From Thermoleophilia bacterium (GTDB lineage: Bacteria > Actinomycetota > Thermoleophilia > Gaiellales > Gaiellaceae), in assembly GCA_025936995.1 (NCBI GenBank), contig JAICSH010000006.1:6575-70574 (forward strand): a stretch of DNA of 64,000 bases, given 5' to 3'. A program made the position numbers and the translations under genes. Each line of letters opens with the position of its first letter. The first letter of the stretch is position 1. Positions 5,757 through 12,278 of the stretch are shown one piece after another. Under the pieces are notes generated by a model. The model was not told the origin of the DNA, did not search any database, and saw only the letters and a program-made list of their open reading frames with translations.

Positions 5757-6713
5757 ATGATAGGTCGAATGAAGCGATTCATCTCCGTTTCGACGCTTAT
5801 TGCGACGCTCTCGGCGGCGCTCCTGACGGGCTCCTCCGCCCAGGCGCTGCGCCTTCCGGCCGCTCGGCACTGCCCCGTCTTCCCGGCGACCAACGCCTGG
5901 AATCAGCGCGTCGACAAGCTCCCGGTCGCCTCCGACTCAGCGCAGTTGATCGCCTCGATCGGGGTAAACGCGTCCGTGCACGCGGACTTCGGCTCGGGCA
6001 CCTGGGCCGGCAGCACGATCGGCATCCCCTTCGACGTCGTCTCGCGGAAGACGCACCGGTCTCGCGTCGGATTCGCCTACGCCGACGAGTCCGATCGCGT
6101 GCGCTATCCGATCCCGCGGCACGTCCATATCGAGGGGGGCCGGCATCCGAGCGGCGACCGGCACGCGCTCCTCGTCGACAAGTCCTCGTGCCGGCTCTAC
6201 GAGCTGTACGACCTCCGTCACACGCGGCACGGCTGGAGGGCCGGCTCGGGCGCCGTCTGGAACCTGCGCTCGAATCACCTCCGCCATGCGGGCTGGACCT
6301 CGGCGGACGCAGCCGGCCTGCCCATCTTCCCCGGCCTCGCCCGCTGGGACGAGGTCAAGCGCGGCGTGATCAACCATGCGCTCCGCTTCACCGCGCCCGA
6401 GACCCGCCGCGCGTACGTCTATCCCGCGCGTCACTACGCATCGAGCTCGAACGACCCCTCGCTGCCGCCGATGGGTCTGCGCGTGAGGTTGAAGGCGCGC
6501 GTGAACGTCGCCTCGTTCCCGCGGCAGGCGCGCGTCGTCCTCCGGGCCATGCAGCGCTACGGGATGATCCTCGCCGACAACGGCTTGCCCTGGTACGTCT
6601 CCGGCGCGCCGAACAAGCACTGGTCGAACGACGCCCTCCACTCGTTCGACCGGCTCACGGGAGCGGACTTCGAGGTCGTCGACACCGCCTCGCTCCCGGA
6701 ACCCGGCAAGTAG
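5757..6713 (+). CDS. Secreted conserved hypothetical protein
   Basis: N-terminal signal peptide (MKRFISVSTLIATLSAALLTGSSAQA) and coding-like GC3 bias. I do not recognise the family. Confidence 0.7.
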   Translation: MIGRMKRFISVSTLIATLSAALLTGSSAQALRLPAARHCPVFPATNAWNQRVDKLPVASDSAQLIASIGVNASVHADFGSGTWAGSTIGIPFDVVSRKTHRSRVGFAYADESDRVRYPIPRHVHIEGGRHPSGDRHALLVDKSSCRLYELYDLRHTRHGWRAGSGAVWNLRSNHLRHAGWTSADAAGLPIFPGLARWDEVKRGVINHALRFTAPETRRAYVYPARHYASSSNDPSLPPMGLRVRLKARVNVASFPRQARVVLRAMQRYGMILADNGLPWYVSGAPNKHWSNDALHSFDRLTGADFEVVDTASLPEPGK

Positions 6714-6726
6714 GCCATGGCCACGC

Positions 6727-6760
6727 GGGACACGTCCGGAACCTGGTTCCAGACGTGTCC
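6727..6760. repeat. GC-rich REP-like palindrome, copy 1
   Basis: GGACACGTCCGGAACC-T-GGTTCCAGACGTGTCC. The 16-nt arms have one mismatch. It lies between convergent genes. Confidence 0.7.
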
Positions 6761-6811
6761 GGCTCAGCCATGCCTCGCTGCGGCGGAACCGCACGGCTCC
6801 ATGGATGAGCC
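6761..6811. repeat. Second hairpin nested between the two REP-like palindromes
   Basis: GGCTCAGCCATG (6761-6772) pairs with CATGGATGAGCC (6800-6811) with one mismatch. Confidence 0.45.
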
Positions 6812-6820
6812 GTCCTCCCC

Positions 6821-6853
6821 GGACACGTCCGGTACCTGGTACCGGACGTGTCC
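6821..6853. repeat. GC-rich REP-like palindrome, copy 2 (perfect)
   Basis: GGACACGTCCGGTACC-T-GGTACCGGACGTGTCC, a perfect 16-nt inverted repeat. Confidence 0.75.
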
Positions 6854-6882
6854 GGTTTGAACAGGGGTCGCGGACGGCGCGG

Positions 6883-7794
6883 CTAGCGGGCGGCCCAGTC
6901 GGCCCGCGGGTCGGGCAGCGGGGTGAGCAGCGGCTCGACGCGTTCGCGGAGATGCTCGAACGCCGGCGGCAGGATGAGCTTCTCGCCGAGGTGCGCGGGA
7001 TCCTCGTCGGTCGCGAACCCGGGACCGAGCGTTGCGATCTCGAAGAGCACGCCTGCCGGCTCGCGGAAGTAGATCGAGCGGAACCAGAAGCGGTCGATGA
7101 TCTGCGTCGGGTTCCCGCCCGCTTCGACGACACGGTCGTGCCAGGCCTGGTGATCCTCCATCGTCGAGGCCCACGCGACGTGGTGGACGGTGCCGGCGCC
7201 GCCGACGCCGTGGACGTCCGGCGCGTCCTCGTAATCGATCCAGCCGCCACGCGTCTCGGCGCGCGTGTCCCAGCGGCCGTCCTCCCGCTCGAAGCCGAGC
7301 GCAACGAGGAACTCGTCACTCGGCCGGCCGTACGCGCGAACCCCCTCGAATCCCTGCAGCGCATGCTCCCGCGGGATCTCGGGATGGAGTGCGACGAGCG
7401 GCTCGTCACTCACGCGCGAGACGACGAGCTCGTGCGCGAGGCCCTCGGGATTCGCGAAGCGGAGCGTCTCGCCGTCGGGCTCGACCTCGTGCCCCTCGGC
7501 GCTCAGCCGATCGGCCCAGAACTCGAGCGCGTCCGTGGAGCCGACCCGCCAGACGACGGTGTGGATCATCCCGGCGCCGGCCACGCCCGGGTGCGCGTCC
7601 GGGTACTCGAAGAACGTGATGTCCGAGCCGGGGCGCCCCTCCTCGTCGGCGTAGAAGAGGTGGTAGACGGTCGGATCGTCCTGGTTGACGGACTTCTTCA
7701 CGAGCCGGAGCCCGAGGACGCGCGCGTAGAAGTCGACGTTGCCGGGCGCGTCAGCCGTGATGCACGTGACGTGATGGATGCCGTCGAACCTCAT
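6883..7794 (-). CDS. Ring-cleaving dioxygenase, VOC/glyoxalase superfamily (two-domain)
   Basis: MRFDGIHHVTCITADAPGNVDFY...HHVAW... is typical of the glyoxalase-fold dioxygenase family. The start is set at ATG 7794, which overlaps the upstream stop (ATGA). The longer tracked N-terminus is Arg-rich. Confidence 0.85.
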   Translation of the reverse strand: MRFDGIHHVTCITADAPGNVDFYARVLGLRLVKKSVNQDDPTVYHLFYADEEGRPGSDITFFEYPDAHPGVAGAGMIHTVVWRVGSTDALEFWADRLSAEGHEVEPDGETLRFANPEGLAHELVVSRVSDEPLVALHPEIPREHALQGFEGVRAYGRPSDEFLVALGFEREDGRWDTRAETRGGWIDYEDAPDVHGVGGAGTVHHVAWASTMEDHQAWHDRVVEAGGNPTQIIDRFWFRSIYFREPAGVLFEIATLGPGFATDEDPAHLGEKLILPPAFEHLRERVEPLLTPLPDPRADWAAR

Positions 7795-8444
7795 GCCGTC
7801 GCGAGGATTGCACACGCGCGTCCCCGCACGCCGACGCGGTGCTTCCAGTCGAGGCCGCGCTTGTCCGCGAGAACTCGCGTCTGCGCCTCCACATTCCAGC
7901 CGGCCGTCTCGACGGCCTTTCGCAGCCCGCGCGGATTGAAGACGAACCACTCGCCCCCATCGCGCCGTGCGTCGAGCCTGGCGAGCGGCGCCGGAAGAAG
8001 CGACAGCGGAAGGGAGACGGTGTCGAGCAGGAGCAACTCGCGGCTCACGCGCCGCACCGCCTCGAGAGCGCCGAGCGGATCGGCCACTACCTGGAGCACG
8101 TAACCCATGAACGCGAAGTCGAACTCACCGTCGAGCTCGTAGAGATCGCACTCCTCGTAGCGGACGCGCGAGCCGAGCTTCGTCTGTGCCTCCTCGAATC
8201 GAGCCCGGCACAGCGACTGGAAGTAGGACGGCCGGTCGATCGCGACGACGTCGGCCGCGCCGCGTCGCTCGAGCTCGAACGCCCAGAAGCCGTCTGCCGT
8301 CCCGATGTCGACGCAGCGCTTCCCACGCAGGTCGGGCCACGGGAGCTTCGGCACGAGCGGGCGAAAGTCCCACCACGCGTCGGTGACAGAGCCGTCGGGA
8401 AGCTCGATCGCGTGCCACCAGCGCTCCGGCTCGTCAGGAGCCAA
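7791..8444 (-). CDS. Class I SAM-dependent methyltransferase
   Basis: SAM-binding motif I is CVDIGTADGFWAFEL, followed by acidic VVAID. It overlaps both neighbouring genes. Confidence 0.8.
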   Translation of the reverse strand: MAPDEPERWWHAIELPDGSVTDAWWDFRPLVPKLPWPDLRGKRCVDIGTADGFWAFELERRGAADVVAIDRPSYFQSLCRARFEEAQTKLGSRVRYEECDLYELDGEFDFAFMGYVLQVVADPLGALEAVRRVSRELLLLDTVSLPLSLLPAPLARLDARRDGGEWFVFNPRGLRKAVETAGWNVEAQTRVLADKRGLDWKHRVGVRGRACAILATA

Positions 8445-9549
8445 ACGGGCCCATGGTCGGGAACCTGTCCTCGCCGTCGAGGAGGTGCCGGAGGAAGAGG
8501 GCGACGCCGACGTCGCCGGCGAAGAGGGAGTAGCGGCCGCGGCCCACCGCGGCCCGCTCCCGCTCGACCTGGCCGATCGCGTGCAACGCGAAGGCGCGCG
8601 CGCGGTCGAGCCAGAGCTCGTCGCCCGTCCGCCGGTGGAGGACGAGGAACGCGTACCCGTTGCCGGCGGTGCCGTGGCAAAGGCCGGGACCCTTCCCGAG
8701 CGGCCCCGCCCGCCACGTCAGCTCGCCGCCGGCGACCGCGAGGTCGAGGTCGAGCAGATCTCCGAGCGTCGCAACCATCCCGGGCGCGCCGTGGCACCAC
8801 TGGACGCGGGTCTCCTCCGGTCCGCACCCCTCGGCCGGGATCCAGTTCACGAGCTCGCCGTCGCGGAGGACGTACGGCTCGAGGTCGACGAGCTGCACCG
8901 GGACCCGGTTGGCGAGCGCGCGGACATTTCCCGCGTAGCCGTGCGCCGGGCCGAGGTACCGGGCGGCGCTCGAGCCGATGTGCGACGTCCATAGCCCATC
9001 GGGATCGCGCGCCGCCTCGACGCGCTCCGCGGCCGCGCGCCACGCCTCGTCCCAGCGCGGCTCGCCCGTCCACGCGAGCATCGCCTCGGCGACGAGCATC
9101 GACCCGGGCGTCCCGAGCATCACCTCGTTCGCCTCGGCATCGAGACCGCCGAGAACGAGCTCGTGGATGCGGTCGGCGAGGCCGGCGTCGCCGGTCAGCC
9201 GGAAGGCGACAAGTGCGATCCCGACCTCCCCGAAGTGGTAGCTCGTCTCGACGGGATCCTCGTCCCAGGGAGAGGGGCGCGCCCGGTAGTGCTCGACGAA
9301 CGACACGGCCGCGTCCCCCCAGCCGGTCGAGCCGAGCTCGTGGAGCGCCCAGATCACCCCCGCGCCGCCGATGTAGACGTCCGAGAAACCCCATTCCTCG
9401 TCTTCGCGCGGGTGCCACGGCCACCGAGTGCCGTCGAACGCGGCTTCCGCGTCGGCGACGATGGTCGCGATCGCCTCCTCGACGCGCGCGTCGTCCCACT
9501 CCCCGGCGGCGAGCGGCTCGTGCTCCGACGGGCGGAAGAGATCAGCCAA
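8434..9549 (-). CDS. Stand-alone LanC-like (lanthionine synthetase C family) protein
   Basis: All LanC signature motifs are visible: GGAGVIWAL, GPAHGYAGN, QWCHGAPGM and LCHGTAGNG (the Zn-ligand Cys/Cys/His positions). Confidence 0.85.
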   Translation of the reverse strand: MADLFRPSEHEPLAAGEWDDARVEEAIATIVADAEAAFDGTRWPWHPREDEEWGFSDVYIGGAGVIWALHELGSTGWGDAAVSFVEHYRARPSPWDEDPVETSYHFGEVGIALVAFRLTGDAGLADRIHELVLGGLDAEANEVMLGTPGSMLVAEAMLAWTGEPRWDEAWRAAAERVEAARDPDGLWTSHIGSSAARYLGPAHGYAGNVRALANRVPVQLVDLEPYVLRDGELVNWIPAEGCGPEETRVQWCHGAPGMVATLGDLLDLDLAVAGGELTWRAGPLGKGPGLCHGTAGNGYAFLVLHRRTGDELWLDRARAFALHAIGQVERERAAVGRGRYSLFAGDVGVALFLRHLLDGEDRFPTMGPFGS

Positions 9550-10723
9550 CGCCTGCGAGCAGGAAGGCGCGCGACTCGCGGAGCATCTCGCGCGCGATCA
9601 CGAGCCGCTGGATCTCTTGCGTCCCCTCGTAGATCTGCGTGATCTTCGCGTCGCGCATGAAGCGCTCGACGGGGTACTCCCGGATGTAGCCGTAGCCGCC
9701 CAGGATCTGCACCGCCTCGGTCGTCACCGCCATCGCGACGTCGCCGCACTTGAGCTTCGCCATCGCCGACGCCTTCGTCAGCTCCTGCCCCTCGACGCCC
9801 TCGTCGACCATGCGCCCGTAGCGGTAGAGGAGGCCGCGCGCCGCCTCGCACTCCGTCTCCATGTCGGCGAGCTTCGCCTGGATCAGCTGGTGCTGGCCGA
9901 TCGGCTTCCCCATCGTCTCGCGCGTCTTCGCGTATTCGAGGGCGTAGTCGGTCGCACCCTGCGCGATCCCGAGCGCCTGTGCCGCGATCCCGGGGCGGGA
10001 GCGGTCGAGGATCCGCATCGCGATCCGGAAGCCCTCTCCCTCCTCGCCGAGGAGGTTCCCGGCGGGGATGCGGCAGCCGTCGAACGTGAGCTCTCCTGTG
10101 GTGGAGCCCGAGATGCCCATCTTCGGCTCGAGCCGCGCGACCGCGAAGCCGGGCGTGTCGGCCTCGACGACGAAGGCCGAGATCCCGGAGTGGCCCGCCT
10201 CCGGGTCGGTCTTCGCGAAGACGGTGTAGAGGTTCGCGACGCCGGCGTTCGTGATGAAGCGCTTCGAGCCGTCGAGGACGTACTCGTCGCCCTCGCGGCG
10301 CGCCGTCGTCCGCATCGCGGCAGAGTCGGACCCGGAGCCGGACTCCGTCAGCGCGTATGCGGGCAGCCATTCGCCCGAGGCGAACCTCGGGAGATACCGC
10401 CCCTTCTGCTCCTCGCTGCCGGCGAGCTTGAGGCCGAGCGAGCCGAGCTCCTGCACGGCGAGGATGAGGGCCGAAGTCGCGCAGACCTTCGCCACCTCCT
10501 CGATCGCGATCAGCGAGAGGAGTGCCCCGGTGCCGAGCCCGCCGTGCTCCTCGGCGAAGAAGAGCCCGAAGATGTCGTTCTCGCGGAACAGTTCGACGAC
10601 GTCCCACGGAAACTCGTGCGAAGCGTCGATCTCGGCCGCTCGCGGCGCGATTCGCTCGCGCGCGAGCTGCCGGACGAGGTCGCGCAGCTCGCGCTGCTCG
10701 TCGGTCAGGACGTCCCAGGGCAT
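9542..10723 (-). CDS. Acyl-CoA dehydrogenase
   Basis: Typical ACAD sequence (YALTESGSGSD, GKPIGQHQLIQ, IYEGTQEIQRLVIAR). The start is set at ATG 10723 (MPWDVLTDEQRELR). The stop overlaps the LanC-like start by 8 nt. Confidence 0.9.
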   Translation of the reverse strand: MPWDVLTDEQRELRDLVRQLARERIAPRAAEIDASHEFPWDVVELFRENDIFGLFFAEEHGGLGTGALLSLIAIEEVAKVCATSALILAVQELGSLGLKLAGSEEQKGRYLPRFASGEWLPAYALTESGSGSDSAAMRTTARREGDEYVLDGSKRFITNAGVANLYTVFAKTDPEAGHSGISAFVVEADTPGFAVARLEPKMGISGSTTGELTFDGCRIPAGNLLGEEGEGFRIAMRILDRSRPGIAAQALGIAQGATDYALEYAKTRETMGKPIGQHQLIQAKLADMETECEAARGLLYRYGRMVDEGVEGQELTKASAMAKLKCGDVAMAVTTEAVQILGGYGYIREYPVERFMRDAKITQIYEGTQEIQRLVIAREMLRESRAFLLAGVG

Positions 10724-10753
10724 GGCGGCAAGGATCGTACGGGAAGCGTCGAC

Positions 10754-10759
10754 TACGCT
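10754..10759 (+). promoter_or_regulatory. -10-like hexamer TACGCT, 7 nt upstream of GTG 10767 (putative leaderless promoter)
   Basis: It matches TANNNT and uses the same geometry as several other genes in this window. Confidence 0.35.
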
Positions 10760-10766
10760 CGCGCTC

Positions 10767-12278
10767 GTGATCCTGCGCAACGGGACGATCCGCACGCTCG
10801 ATCCATCACTGCCGACGGTCTCGTCCCTCTGGATCGCGGGCGACCGGATCGCGGGCGGGGTCGGCGTGCACGAGGCGGCGCTGCCGAGCCCGGAGACGGT
10901 GGATCTCGGCGGCCGCTGCGTCCTGCCCGGGTTCACCGACTCGCACGTCCACTTCCCCACCTGGGCCCTCGCGCGGCACGACGTGCGCCTCGACGGCTGC
11001 GCGTCGCTCGCGGATGCGCTCGACCGGGTGCGCGCGGCGCCGCGAACCGGAACCTGGCTGCGCGGCCAGGGCTGGCGGGACGCCGACTGGCCCGACGGCC
11101 CGCCGACCCGGCAGGCGCTCGACGAGATCGAGCCCGAACGGCCCGCGATGCTGATCTCGAAGGACTACCACGCGCTCTGGCTCAACTCCGTCGCGCTCGC
11201 GCTCGCGGGCGGCTACCTCGAGGTCGAGGGAGGCGTGGTGGTCCGCGACGAGCACGGCGACGCGACCGGCGTCCTCTACGAGCGTGCGGCGTGGGAGTTC
11301 AAGGAACGCCACGCGCGCGTGCCGGACGACGAGTACGTCGAGGCGATGCGTGACGGCGTCAAGGTCGCGGCCTCGCGCGGCGTCACGGCGCTGCACGACA
11401 AGGACGGCTGGCTCGGCGCGATCGGGCTCTGGCAGCGGCTCGAGCAGCAGGGCAGCCTGCCGCTCCGCGTCTGGCAGTCGACGCCCGCCGACCGGCTCGG
11501 CGACCTCCGCAACCTCGGCCTGCGTAGCGGCGTCGGCTCTCCCCTCCTCCGACTCGGCTACCTCAAGGCGTTCATGGACGGAACGCTGGGCTCGCAGACG
11601 GCCTGGATGGCGGACCGCAGTGGAGTCACGATCACGAGGAGCGAGGATCTCGAGGAGATCGTCCGCGATGGCGCCGAGGCCGGCTGGCCCGTCGGCGTGC
11701 ACGCGATCGGCGACGCGGCGAACGCAGCGGCGCTCGACGCATTCGAGCGTTCTCGGGAAGCGTGGCAGCCGCGCGGCCTCCGCCCGCGGATCGAGCACGC
11801 GCAGTGCCTCGCCCCGGGCGACGTCTCACGCTTCGCCGAGCTAGGCGTCGTGGCCTCCGTCCAGTTCTCCCACGCGCCTTCCGACGAGGAGCTCGCGAAG
11901 CGCTTCTGGTCCGACCGCCTCGACCGCACGTACTCGTTCGGCGCACTCCTCGAGTCGGGCGCGCTCCTCGCGAACGGCTCCGACGCGCCGGTGGAGGAGC
12001 TCGAGCCGTGGGCCGGCGTCGTCGCCGCCGTCCTCGACCACTGGCGCGATGACCAGCGGCTGACGCTCGAGCAGGCGTTGCATGCGGTCTGCGTCGCGCC
12101 GGCGTGGCTGTCCCACGACGAGCGCGTCCGAGGGACGCTCGTCCCCGGCCGCTACGCCGACCTCGTGGTGCTCGACCGCGACCCGTTCGCCTGCGAGCCG
12201 GAGGAGCTGCGCGAGGTCCAGATCGTCGCGACGATGCTCGCCGGCCGCTGGACGCACAACCCGCCGCCCTGGGATTGA
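10767..12278 (+). CDS. Amidohydrolase family protein (YtcJ-like metal-dependent hydrolase)
   Basis: Motifs DSHVHF, HAIGD and GSDAPV. The start is either GTG 10767 or ATG 10722, and the latter would share its CATG with the divergent ACAD start. Confidence 0.85.
   Translation: MILRNGTIRTLDPSLPTVSSLWIAGDRIAGGVGVHEAALPSPETVDLGGRCVLPGFTDSHVHFPTWALARHDVRLDGCASLADALDRVRAAPRTGTWLRGQGWRDADWPDGPPTRQALDEIEPERPAMLISKDYHALWLNSVALALAGGYLEVEGGVVVRDEHGDATGVLYERAAWEFKERHARVPDDEYVEAMRDGVKVAASRGVTALHDKDGWLGAIGLWQRLEQQGSLPLRVWQSTPADRLGDLRNLGLRSGVGSPLLRLGYLKAFMDGTLGSQTAWMADRSGVTITRSEDLEEIVRDGAEAGWPVGVHAIGDAANAAALDAFERSREAWQPRGLRPRIEHAQCLAPGDVSRFAELGVVASVQFSHAPSDEELAKRFWSDRLDRTYSFGALLESGALLANGSDAPVEELEPWAGVVAAVLDHWRDDQRLTLEQALHAVCVAPAWLSHDERVRGTLVPGRYADLVVLDRDPFACEPEELREVQIVATMLAGRWTHNPPPWD

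Follow-up and report, generated by a model that had tools for sequence, protein, structure and literature searches.

Within the 64,000-nucleotide stretch of the Thermoleophilia contig JAICSH010000006.1 analysed here (hereafter the window), four overlapping minus-strand genes encode an acyl-CoA dehydrogenase (ACAD), a LanC-like zinc enzyme, a methyltransferase dependent on S-adenosylmethionine (SAM) and a ring-cleaving dioxygenase with vicinal oxygen chelate (VOC) domains. The host is a soil Gaiellaceae metagenome-assembled genome (MAG) of 1.85 Mb and 70% completeness, designated G000. An earlier note on this DNA had interpreted the string as one pathway built around the LanC-like protein. Comparison with related genomes shows instead that the locus is a mosaic, in which two core Gaiellales genes, those of the ACAD and the dioxygenase, surround a variable slot that holds the LanC-like and methyltransferase genes. 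Taken as a whole, the reading that we favour, with a confidence slightly better than even, is that of a mosaic locus carrying a LanCL-type zinc enzyme which adds thiols and is not a lanthipeptide cyclase.

Eukaryotic LanCL proteins have only recently been shown to be glutathione-adding repair enzymes. Stand-alone LanC-like proteins also occur in bacteria in their thousands and, to our knowledge, none of them has an assigned function. A literature search found neither a characterised bacterial stand-alone LanCL-type enzyme nor a reported link between LanC proteins and ACADs. The number of unclassified LanC-like genes in RefSeq has been given as 3,052 (Walker et al., 2020, PMC7268733). The protein described here joins this known, uncharacterised kind, and a new four-gene pathway is not supported.

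The LanC-like protein and its nearest relatives

The LanC-like protein matches the Pfam family LANC_like (PF05147) over residues 57-365 with 79.8 bits (cut-off 23.2) and contains the motifs GGAG, AHGYAG, WCHG and CHGTAG. The intact motifs and zinc ligands described in the earlier note are confirmed by an alignment of 18 homologues reaching down to 41% identity, in which the catalytic histidine and the zinc ligands (H203, C252, C291 and H292) are all invariant. A single-sequence search of the PDB matched GCR2, LanCL2 and LanCL1, and a profile of the family scored 118 bits with LanCL2, 113 with LanCL1, 109 with GCR2 and 44 with the class II enzyme LicM2; NisC was not found by this profile at E<=1. 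The AlphaFold (AF2) model, with a predicted local distance difference test score (pLDDT) of 91.5 and a predicted template modelling score (pTM) of 0.92, is an all-helical repeat of the alpha,alpha-toroid type. Its top nine Foldseek matches are to LanCL2, LanCL1 and GCR2 (E about 1e-12, TM 0.66-0.72). MadC follows with E 3e-8 and NisC at rank 17 with E 6e-6 and 15% identity, and the LanCL proteins, MadC and NisC are all assigned a probability of 1.00. Judged by sequence and by the modelled fold, the protein is much closer to the eukaryotic LanCL1, LanCL2 and GCR2 than to NisC.

This likeness extends to the architecture and to the active site. LanCL1 and LanCL2 (PDB 3E6U, 8CZK and 6WQ1) and GCR2 of Arabidopsis (3T33), which provide the best sequence and fold matches, are likewise stand-alone, single-domain alpha,alpha-toroids of approximately 370-400 aa with a Cys/Cys-His zinc site and a catalytic histidine. 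The residue directly after the first zinc-binding cysteine is a histidine in LanCL proteins (His277 of LanCL1) and mostly a tyrosine in bacterial LanCs (PMC9934072). In the window protein and its clade the corresponding sequence is WCHGAPG, with the LanCL-type histidine in place, whereas some LanC-like paralogues carry T, A, V or G instead of this histidine. The differences from the eukaryotic proteins are nonetheless considerable. The LanC-like protein is only 21-23% identical to them, it is bacterial and, within our phylum sample, restricted to Thermoleophilia, and its host has no GshB or MshC matches above cut-off. Furthermore, the glutathione contacts of LanCL1 (H274/R364/D367/E374) are replaced, being aligned to Q250/A/R/A in a HMMER sequence alignment, as distinct from a structural superposition. 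With the cyclases NisC (2G02) and MadC (8BYK) the protein has in common the superfamily, the zinc ligands and the catalytic histidine, and thia-Michael chemistry would be expected of all three. The similarity to these two is, however, much weaker, the usual tyrosine after the zinc-binding cysteine is replaced by histidine, and no LanB or LanA was found in the genome or genus.

The machinery that a lanthipeptide cyclase would serve was sought beyond the immediate neighbourhood. For LanB, neither PF04738 nor PF14028 had a match in the host genome or in three congeners that carry the gene and are at least 90% complete (G002, G012 and G018); the same search, as a positive control, matched 6 of 150 other Actinomycetota. 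Similarly, the LanM dehydratase domain PF13575 had no match in five genomes. The host genome, at its 70% completeness, contains a single LANC_like gene, and the encoded protein reaches 51-65 bits with the NCBIfam models of LanKC, LanL and LanM, compared to cut-offs of 304-650; it consists of one domain and is not fused to another. The string itself leaves no intergenic room for a precursor peptide gene, and no conserved small open reading frame (ORF) rich in Cys, Ser or Thr was found there. The earlier note had pointed out that no precursor, dehydratase or LanM gene lies near the LanC-like gene and had suggested that this is not a lanthipeptide locus. Both statements hold when the search for LanB and the LanM dehydratase is widened to the genome and the genus.

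A mosaic locus between two core genes

The coordinates of the four genes and of the regions that flank them are collected in Table 1. The gene positions given in the earlier note, together with overlaps of 8, 11 and 4 nt, were confirmed by Pfam assignments and by direct reading of the junctions: the ACAD stop and LanC-like start are joined in TTGGCTGA (8 nt), the LanC-like stop and methyltransferase start in TTGGCTCCTGA (11 nt) and the methyltransferase stop and dioxygenase start in ATGA (4 nt). The ACAD begins with ATG at 10723 and the LanC-like protein with TTG, the latter in agreement with the N-termini of its orthologues (MAELF...). Scans of positions 6500-11000 found no consensus sigma-70 promoter and no terminator with a T-tract; the palindromes behind the dioxygenase gene are built from recurring inverted repeats of the CCGGACACGTCCGG type. 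In the host genome the four genes probably share one transcript. Overlaps as short as these are nothing unusual there and occur, according to rough gene calls made with a heuristic based on GC content at third codon positions (GC3), in 21 of 42 co-directional neighbour pairs of the window. The overlaps therefore argue for co-transcription and not for a special unit. Of the translationally coupled unit proposed in the earlier note, co-transcription is thus supported and its special status is not, and tight overlaps in these compact, high-GC genomes are poor evidence of a shared pathway.

Table 1. Genes of the string and flanking regions, numbered from the first letter of the window
Feature	Position	Strand	Basis
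ACAD, short-chain type, 393 aa	9542..10723	-	three ACAD Pfam domains
LanC-like (LanCL-type) zinc enzyme, stand-alone, 371 aa	8434..9549	-	PF05147 LANC_like
Class I SAM-dependent methyltransferase, 217 aa	7791..8444	-	Methyltransf_23/11/25
MhqO/PcpA-type two-domain VOC ring-cleaving (hydroquinone-type) dioxygenase	6883..7794	-	two Glyoxalase/VOC stretches
Divergent intergenic region of 43 bp between the ACAD and amidohydrolase_3 genes; presumed promoter region of the string	10724..10766	.	
GC-rich palindromes just 3' of the stop codon of the dioxygenase gene, where convergent genes meet; the transcription unit probably ends here	6727..6853	.	sequence reading

In order to compare the locus between genomes, orthologous loci were gathered from the same genus and from public genomes, and the neighbouring genes were mapped by tblastn and by clustering of gene calls. 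All compared genomes are MAGs, and related genomes are not independent, so that the counts given here are descriptive. There are 25 distinct LanC-like orthologues of the window type, and they group in a single clade with 100% support. In 24 of these 25 loci the ACAD gene lies directly upstream and overlaps by the same 8 nt; only in L068 are two small genes inserted. The distance from the LanC-like gene to the dioxygenase gene, in contrast to this fixed junction, ranges from 18 nt to approximately 7 kb, and the cargo in between includes DUF2007 and PNPOx-like genes, a different methyltransferase together with an ammonium transporter (Amt), and unknowns. An uninterrupted run of all four genes is found only in the window and L054. 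They are thus not syntenic as a set of four, and among their junctions only that from ACAD to LanC-like is stable. In L133, which belongs to the same genus, the order is ACAD, dioxygenase and carboxylesterase, with neither a LanC-like nor a methyltransferase gene between the first two.

The presence counts, together with the variable spacing between the LanC-like and dioxygenase genes, identify the two outer genes as core genes that bracket a variable slot. An ACAD orthologue is present in 95 of 151 genomes of the order and, as a single copy, in 41 of 45 genomes of the family; the MhqO-like dioxygenase occurs in 142 and 44 of these genomes, respectively, mostly at a distance from the ACAD gene. 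The ACAD is accordingly a core gene of the family and the dioxygenase one of the order. By comparison, LanC-like homologues are patchily distributed (68/151 in the order, 20/45 in the family), and the window-type orthologue was found in only four of the nine genomes of the genus with a completeness of 90% or more. Across the orthologous loci the ACAD is 91-96% identical and the LanC-like protein 65-88%, meaning that the ACAD evolves far more slowly. The methyltransferase is a rare accessory gene: its type is present in 6 of the 25 loci, where it touches the dioxygenase gene in five and the LanC-like gene in three, and in 3 of 120 other genomes of the family. The idea of one pathway built around the LanC-like protein did not survive this comparison, given that the ACAD and dioxygenase are core genes also without it, that the methyltransferase is confined to few loci and that the cargo of the spacer varies.

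The ACAD forms one end of a backbone that is conserved throughout the family, in the order M20 peptidase, HxlR, amidohydrolase_3, small VOC and ACAD. LanC-like genes have been placed at either end of this backbone. In L147 and L072, from other Gaiellaceae, the ACAD orthologue is directly followed by the gene of a divergent LanC-like protein (47-48% identical). In five loci whose LanC-like genes form one clade (L101, L106, L141, L143 and L144) the gene is found at the far end, immediately upstream of that of the M20 peptidase; these five come from another Gaiellaceae genus and, in the case of L101 and L106, from two further public MAGs of the Gaiellaceae type. The tree places the three ACAD-adjacent LanC-like groups apart, but a single clade is not rejected by the approximately unbiased (AU) test (p=0.11). 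Repeated recruitment and an old ACAD-LanC arrangement that was lost many times explain the pattern equally well. The stable pair is compatible with an enoyl-CoA link between the two enzymes and equally with an inherited insertion behind a core gene; a functional ACAD-LanC link is possible but unsupported.

As to the identities of the neighbouring enzymes, the three Pfam domains of the ACAD score 167, 106 and 96 bits, and its best PDB matches are enzymes of the short-chain acyl-CoA dehydrogenase (SCAD) and butyryl-CoA dehydrogenase (Bcd) type (E 1e-117 to 1e-91). The N, middle and C domains are present and the catalytic glutamate is kept in QIYEGTQEIQ (YEGT motif); against NCBIfam the protein stays below all equivalog cut-offs, so that a substrate cannot be assigned. 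The dioxygenase matches MhqO of B. subtilis (3oaj) with E 6e-52 over residues 5-294, 1zsw with 1e-50 and PcpA (4huz) with 9e-26 and, by full-length similarity, is of the MhqO/PcpA type. For the methyltransferase, no substrate could be assigned with NCBIfam (61 bits with TIGR04290, cut-off 300), and its PDB matches are weak and of the WbdD type (E 7e-4) or otherwise generic.

Two further genes frequently accompany the dioxygenase in relatives. In most of them a DUF2007 gene ('putative signal transducing', 72-76 aa) lies directly upstream of the MhqO-like dioxygenase gene, as in L036:6748-6975, L037:8412-8633 and 15 other related loci; once it is found between the ACAD and LanC-like genes. It was not detected by tblastn in the window or in the host genome, of which 70% is represented. 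A conserved ORF of 74 aa between the LanC-like and dioxygenase genes of relatives had been considered as a precursor peptide and was ruled out, as it encodes a DUF2007 domain protein. An MhqD-like Abhydrolase_2 gene (phospholipase/carboxylesterase) directly follows the dioxygenase gene in L031:11155-11760, L034, L054, L058, L060 and L133, and is missing in the window.

Proposed function and competing explanations

The LanC-like protein is most likely a LanCL-type enzyme that adds thiols by thia-Michael addition. Catalysis appears to have been retained because the zinc site and the catalytic histidine are strictly conserved, and the addition is expected to be intermolecular because the protein is close to the LanCL proteins and no peptide machinery was found. 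In such a mechanism, the zinc site (Cys252, Cys291 and His292) would activate the thiol, and His203 and His253 would help to add it across an activated C=C bond. A dehydroamino acid in a damaged protein could be the acceptor, as could a small enone or quinone, and this would suit a role in detoxification or repair. Thiol (Michael) addition had already been put forward in the earlier note and is still the most reasonable chemistry for a LanCL-like protein with intact residues; its proposed coupling to a pathway of the ACAD, methyltransferase and dioxygenase is unsupported.

The thiol is probably neither glutathione nor mycothiol, since the glutathione contacts of LanCL1 are not conserved and neither MshC nor GshB was found above cut-off in five genomes of the genus (G000, G002, G012, G018 and G075). 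In the case of GshB, the controls were positive and GshA was not searched for. EgtB is present in one of these five genomes.

Several observations weigh against the favoured reading. The 8-nt overlap between the ACAD and LanC-like genes is very stable, and adjacency to the ACAD gene recurs in the divergent lineages L147 and L072. The absence of dehydratases is based on Pfam models of known classes and on MAGs that are 70-95% complete. Furthermore, methyltransferase genes recur beside LanC-like genes, which hints that the methyltransferase of the window is perhaps not mere cargo.

This recurrence involves unrelated class I SAM methyltransferases of at least three sequence clusters, which adjoin LanC-like genes of different subclades and make up 7 of 52 co-directional neighbours. 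Examples are found in the window (7791-8444), at L065:9110-9841, L068:9113-9856, L078:6077-6796 and L109:1213-2046, and in L098.

Among the alternatives, the one closest to the neighbouring genes is a module for the detoxification of quinones, in which the LanC-like enzyme would conjugate a thiol to a benzoquinone or another aromatic electrophile, the MhqO-type dioxygenase would cleave the S-adduct and the methyltransferase would cap a hydroxyl or thiol group. Mhq/CatE dioxygenases have been described as dependent on thiols, with quinone-S-adducts as the compounds cleaved and sensors of the DUF24/HxlR type in control (PMC6798810). The window resembles the Mhq genes of B. subtilis and S. aureus (MhqO/MhqE and MhqD, with the regulators YodB and CatR) in its close match to MhqO and in the HxlR-family regulator gene of the conserved backbone, which also includes a small VOC gene, and the Abhydrolase_2 gene that directly follows the dioxygenase gene in relatives recalls the mhqED arrangement of Firmicutes. 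VOC genes are, moreover, the second commonest co-directional neighbours of LanC-like genes (4/52). On the other hand, no MarR-type MhqR is present here, the HxlR regulator gene belongs to a different transcription unit at a distance of 7 kb, and we know of no Mhq system that includes a LanC-like enzyme. The dioxygenase is found in 142 of 151 genomes regardless of the LanC-like gene (68/151), variable cargo separates the two, the dioxygenase unit is usually headed by the DUF2007 gene, and LanC-like genes occur in many unrelated contexts, all of which makes the module rather unlikely. A dedicated four-step route, in which the ACAD would produce an enoyl-CoA, the LanC-like enzyme would add a thiol and the methyltransferase and dioxygenase would process the product, draws on the tight overlaps, which suggest co-translation, on the ACAD-LanC junction in 24 of 25 loci and two divergent lineages, and on the AU test (p=0.11), according to which the pairing may be old. 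The slowly evolving ACAD (91-96%) is, however, a core gene that occurs without a LanC-like gene in most genomes of the family. The methyltransferase is rare (6/25 loci, 3/120 family genomes), the dioxygenase is a core gene usually distant from the ACAD, and it is hard to see what a ring-cleaving hydroquinone dioxygenase would act on in a route through acyl-CoA thioethers. We therefore regard this route as improbable.

The remaining alternatives concern the LanC-like protein alone. A non-catalytic or regulatory role, for example as a binding partner of another protein, was for a long time proposed for LanCL2 and GCR2, and the very diverse contexts, the varying copy number and the lack of an identified co-substrate pathway would fit such a role; the zinc ligands and catalytic histidine are, however, invariant across paralogues that are approximately 40% identical, and we consider this explanation highly improbable. 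Least probable of all is an orphan cyclase of ribosomally produced peptides with post-translational modifications (RiPPs), which would form thioether rings in a peptide after its dehydration by an unrecognised enzyme whose gene lies elsewhere. All residues for LanC-type cyclisation are intact, and of about 1,400 unclassified LanC-like genes in a published list, a number belong to clusters with RiPP-associated genes (Walker et al., 2020, PMC7268733). Searches of the genus, though, yielded no LanB, no LanM and no additional LanC domain, and the operon leaves no space for a precursor gene. The neighbour tally contains no protease, ATP-binding cassette (ABC) exporter or kinase, and the protein is nearer to LanCL than to any cyclase. 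The divergent operon encodes, at a distance of 1.6 kb, a permease of the APC amino-acid family, which is no exporter of the RiPP type.

A LanCL-type thiol-adding enzyme thus remains the preferred function, and it permits a more far-reaching proposal, which at present we consider unlikely. The LanC-like family of Thermoleophilia would then represent the first detoxification or repair enzyme of the LanCL type in bacteria. Its thiol would be neither glutathione nor mycothiol but cysteine, coenzyme A or an undescribed low-molecular-weight thiol of Gaiellales, and in the lineage of the window the enzyme would partner with its neighbours, either by preparing quinones as thiol conjugates for MhqO-type cleavage or by trapping reactive enoyl-CoAs of the ACAD, with the recurrently adjacent methyltransferases acting on the adduct.

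Distribution of the LanC-like family

The LanC-like family is large, with at least 524 loci confirmed among pattern matches in public genomes. Of 300 sampled Actinomycetota genomes, two others contain a homologue at E<=1e-30, both of them Thermoleophilia, so that within the phylum sample the family occurs only in this class. It is abundant in soil Gaiellales and Solirubrobacterales, where the active site is kept and a lanthipeptide context is absent. The family may therefore serve as a reasonable starting point for asking what bacterial LanCL-type enzymes do and on which thiol these actinobacteria rely. In genome mining, stand-alone LanC-like genes of this kind ought not to be counted as lanthipeptide clusters.

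The contexts of the family are diverse. Among 52 co-directional immediate neighbours of LanC-like genes, a Pfam tally yielded class I methyltransferases (7), VOC proteins (4), ACADs (3) and Pyr_redox_2 proteins (3) as recurrent families, and no RiPP-associated family is among the 25 most frequent of the 83 matched. A second LanC-like paralogue, which is 37-45% identical and has A, G, T or V in place of the WCHG histidine, is present in L044, L048, L049, L050 and L112, from the same genus and relatives, where it is inserted among housekeeping genes in the order plsX-acpP-rnc-smc-[LanC-like]-ftsY/M29 peptidase. The neighbourhood of the same-genus paralogue, with an ORF of 81 aa and a large upstream gene, had been considered as a RiPP cluster and was ruled out on account of this plsX-acpP-rnc-smc and ftsY/M29 context. 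Other paralogues adjoin LigD, GFA, leuA, glycogen phosphorylase and further genes.

Two of these contexts may be mentioned in addition. A GFA-family gene is convergent to the LanC-like gene in at least six loci of the Solirubrobacterales type (L074-L076, L079, L083 and L121); GFA denotes the fold of the glutathione-dependent formaldehyde-activating enzyme, another enzyme of zinc-thiol adducts. At L078:6802-10302, three LanC-like segments with 37-47% identity to the query follow one another in tandem on the same strand and are preceded by LytR_C and methyltransferase genes.

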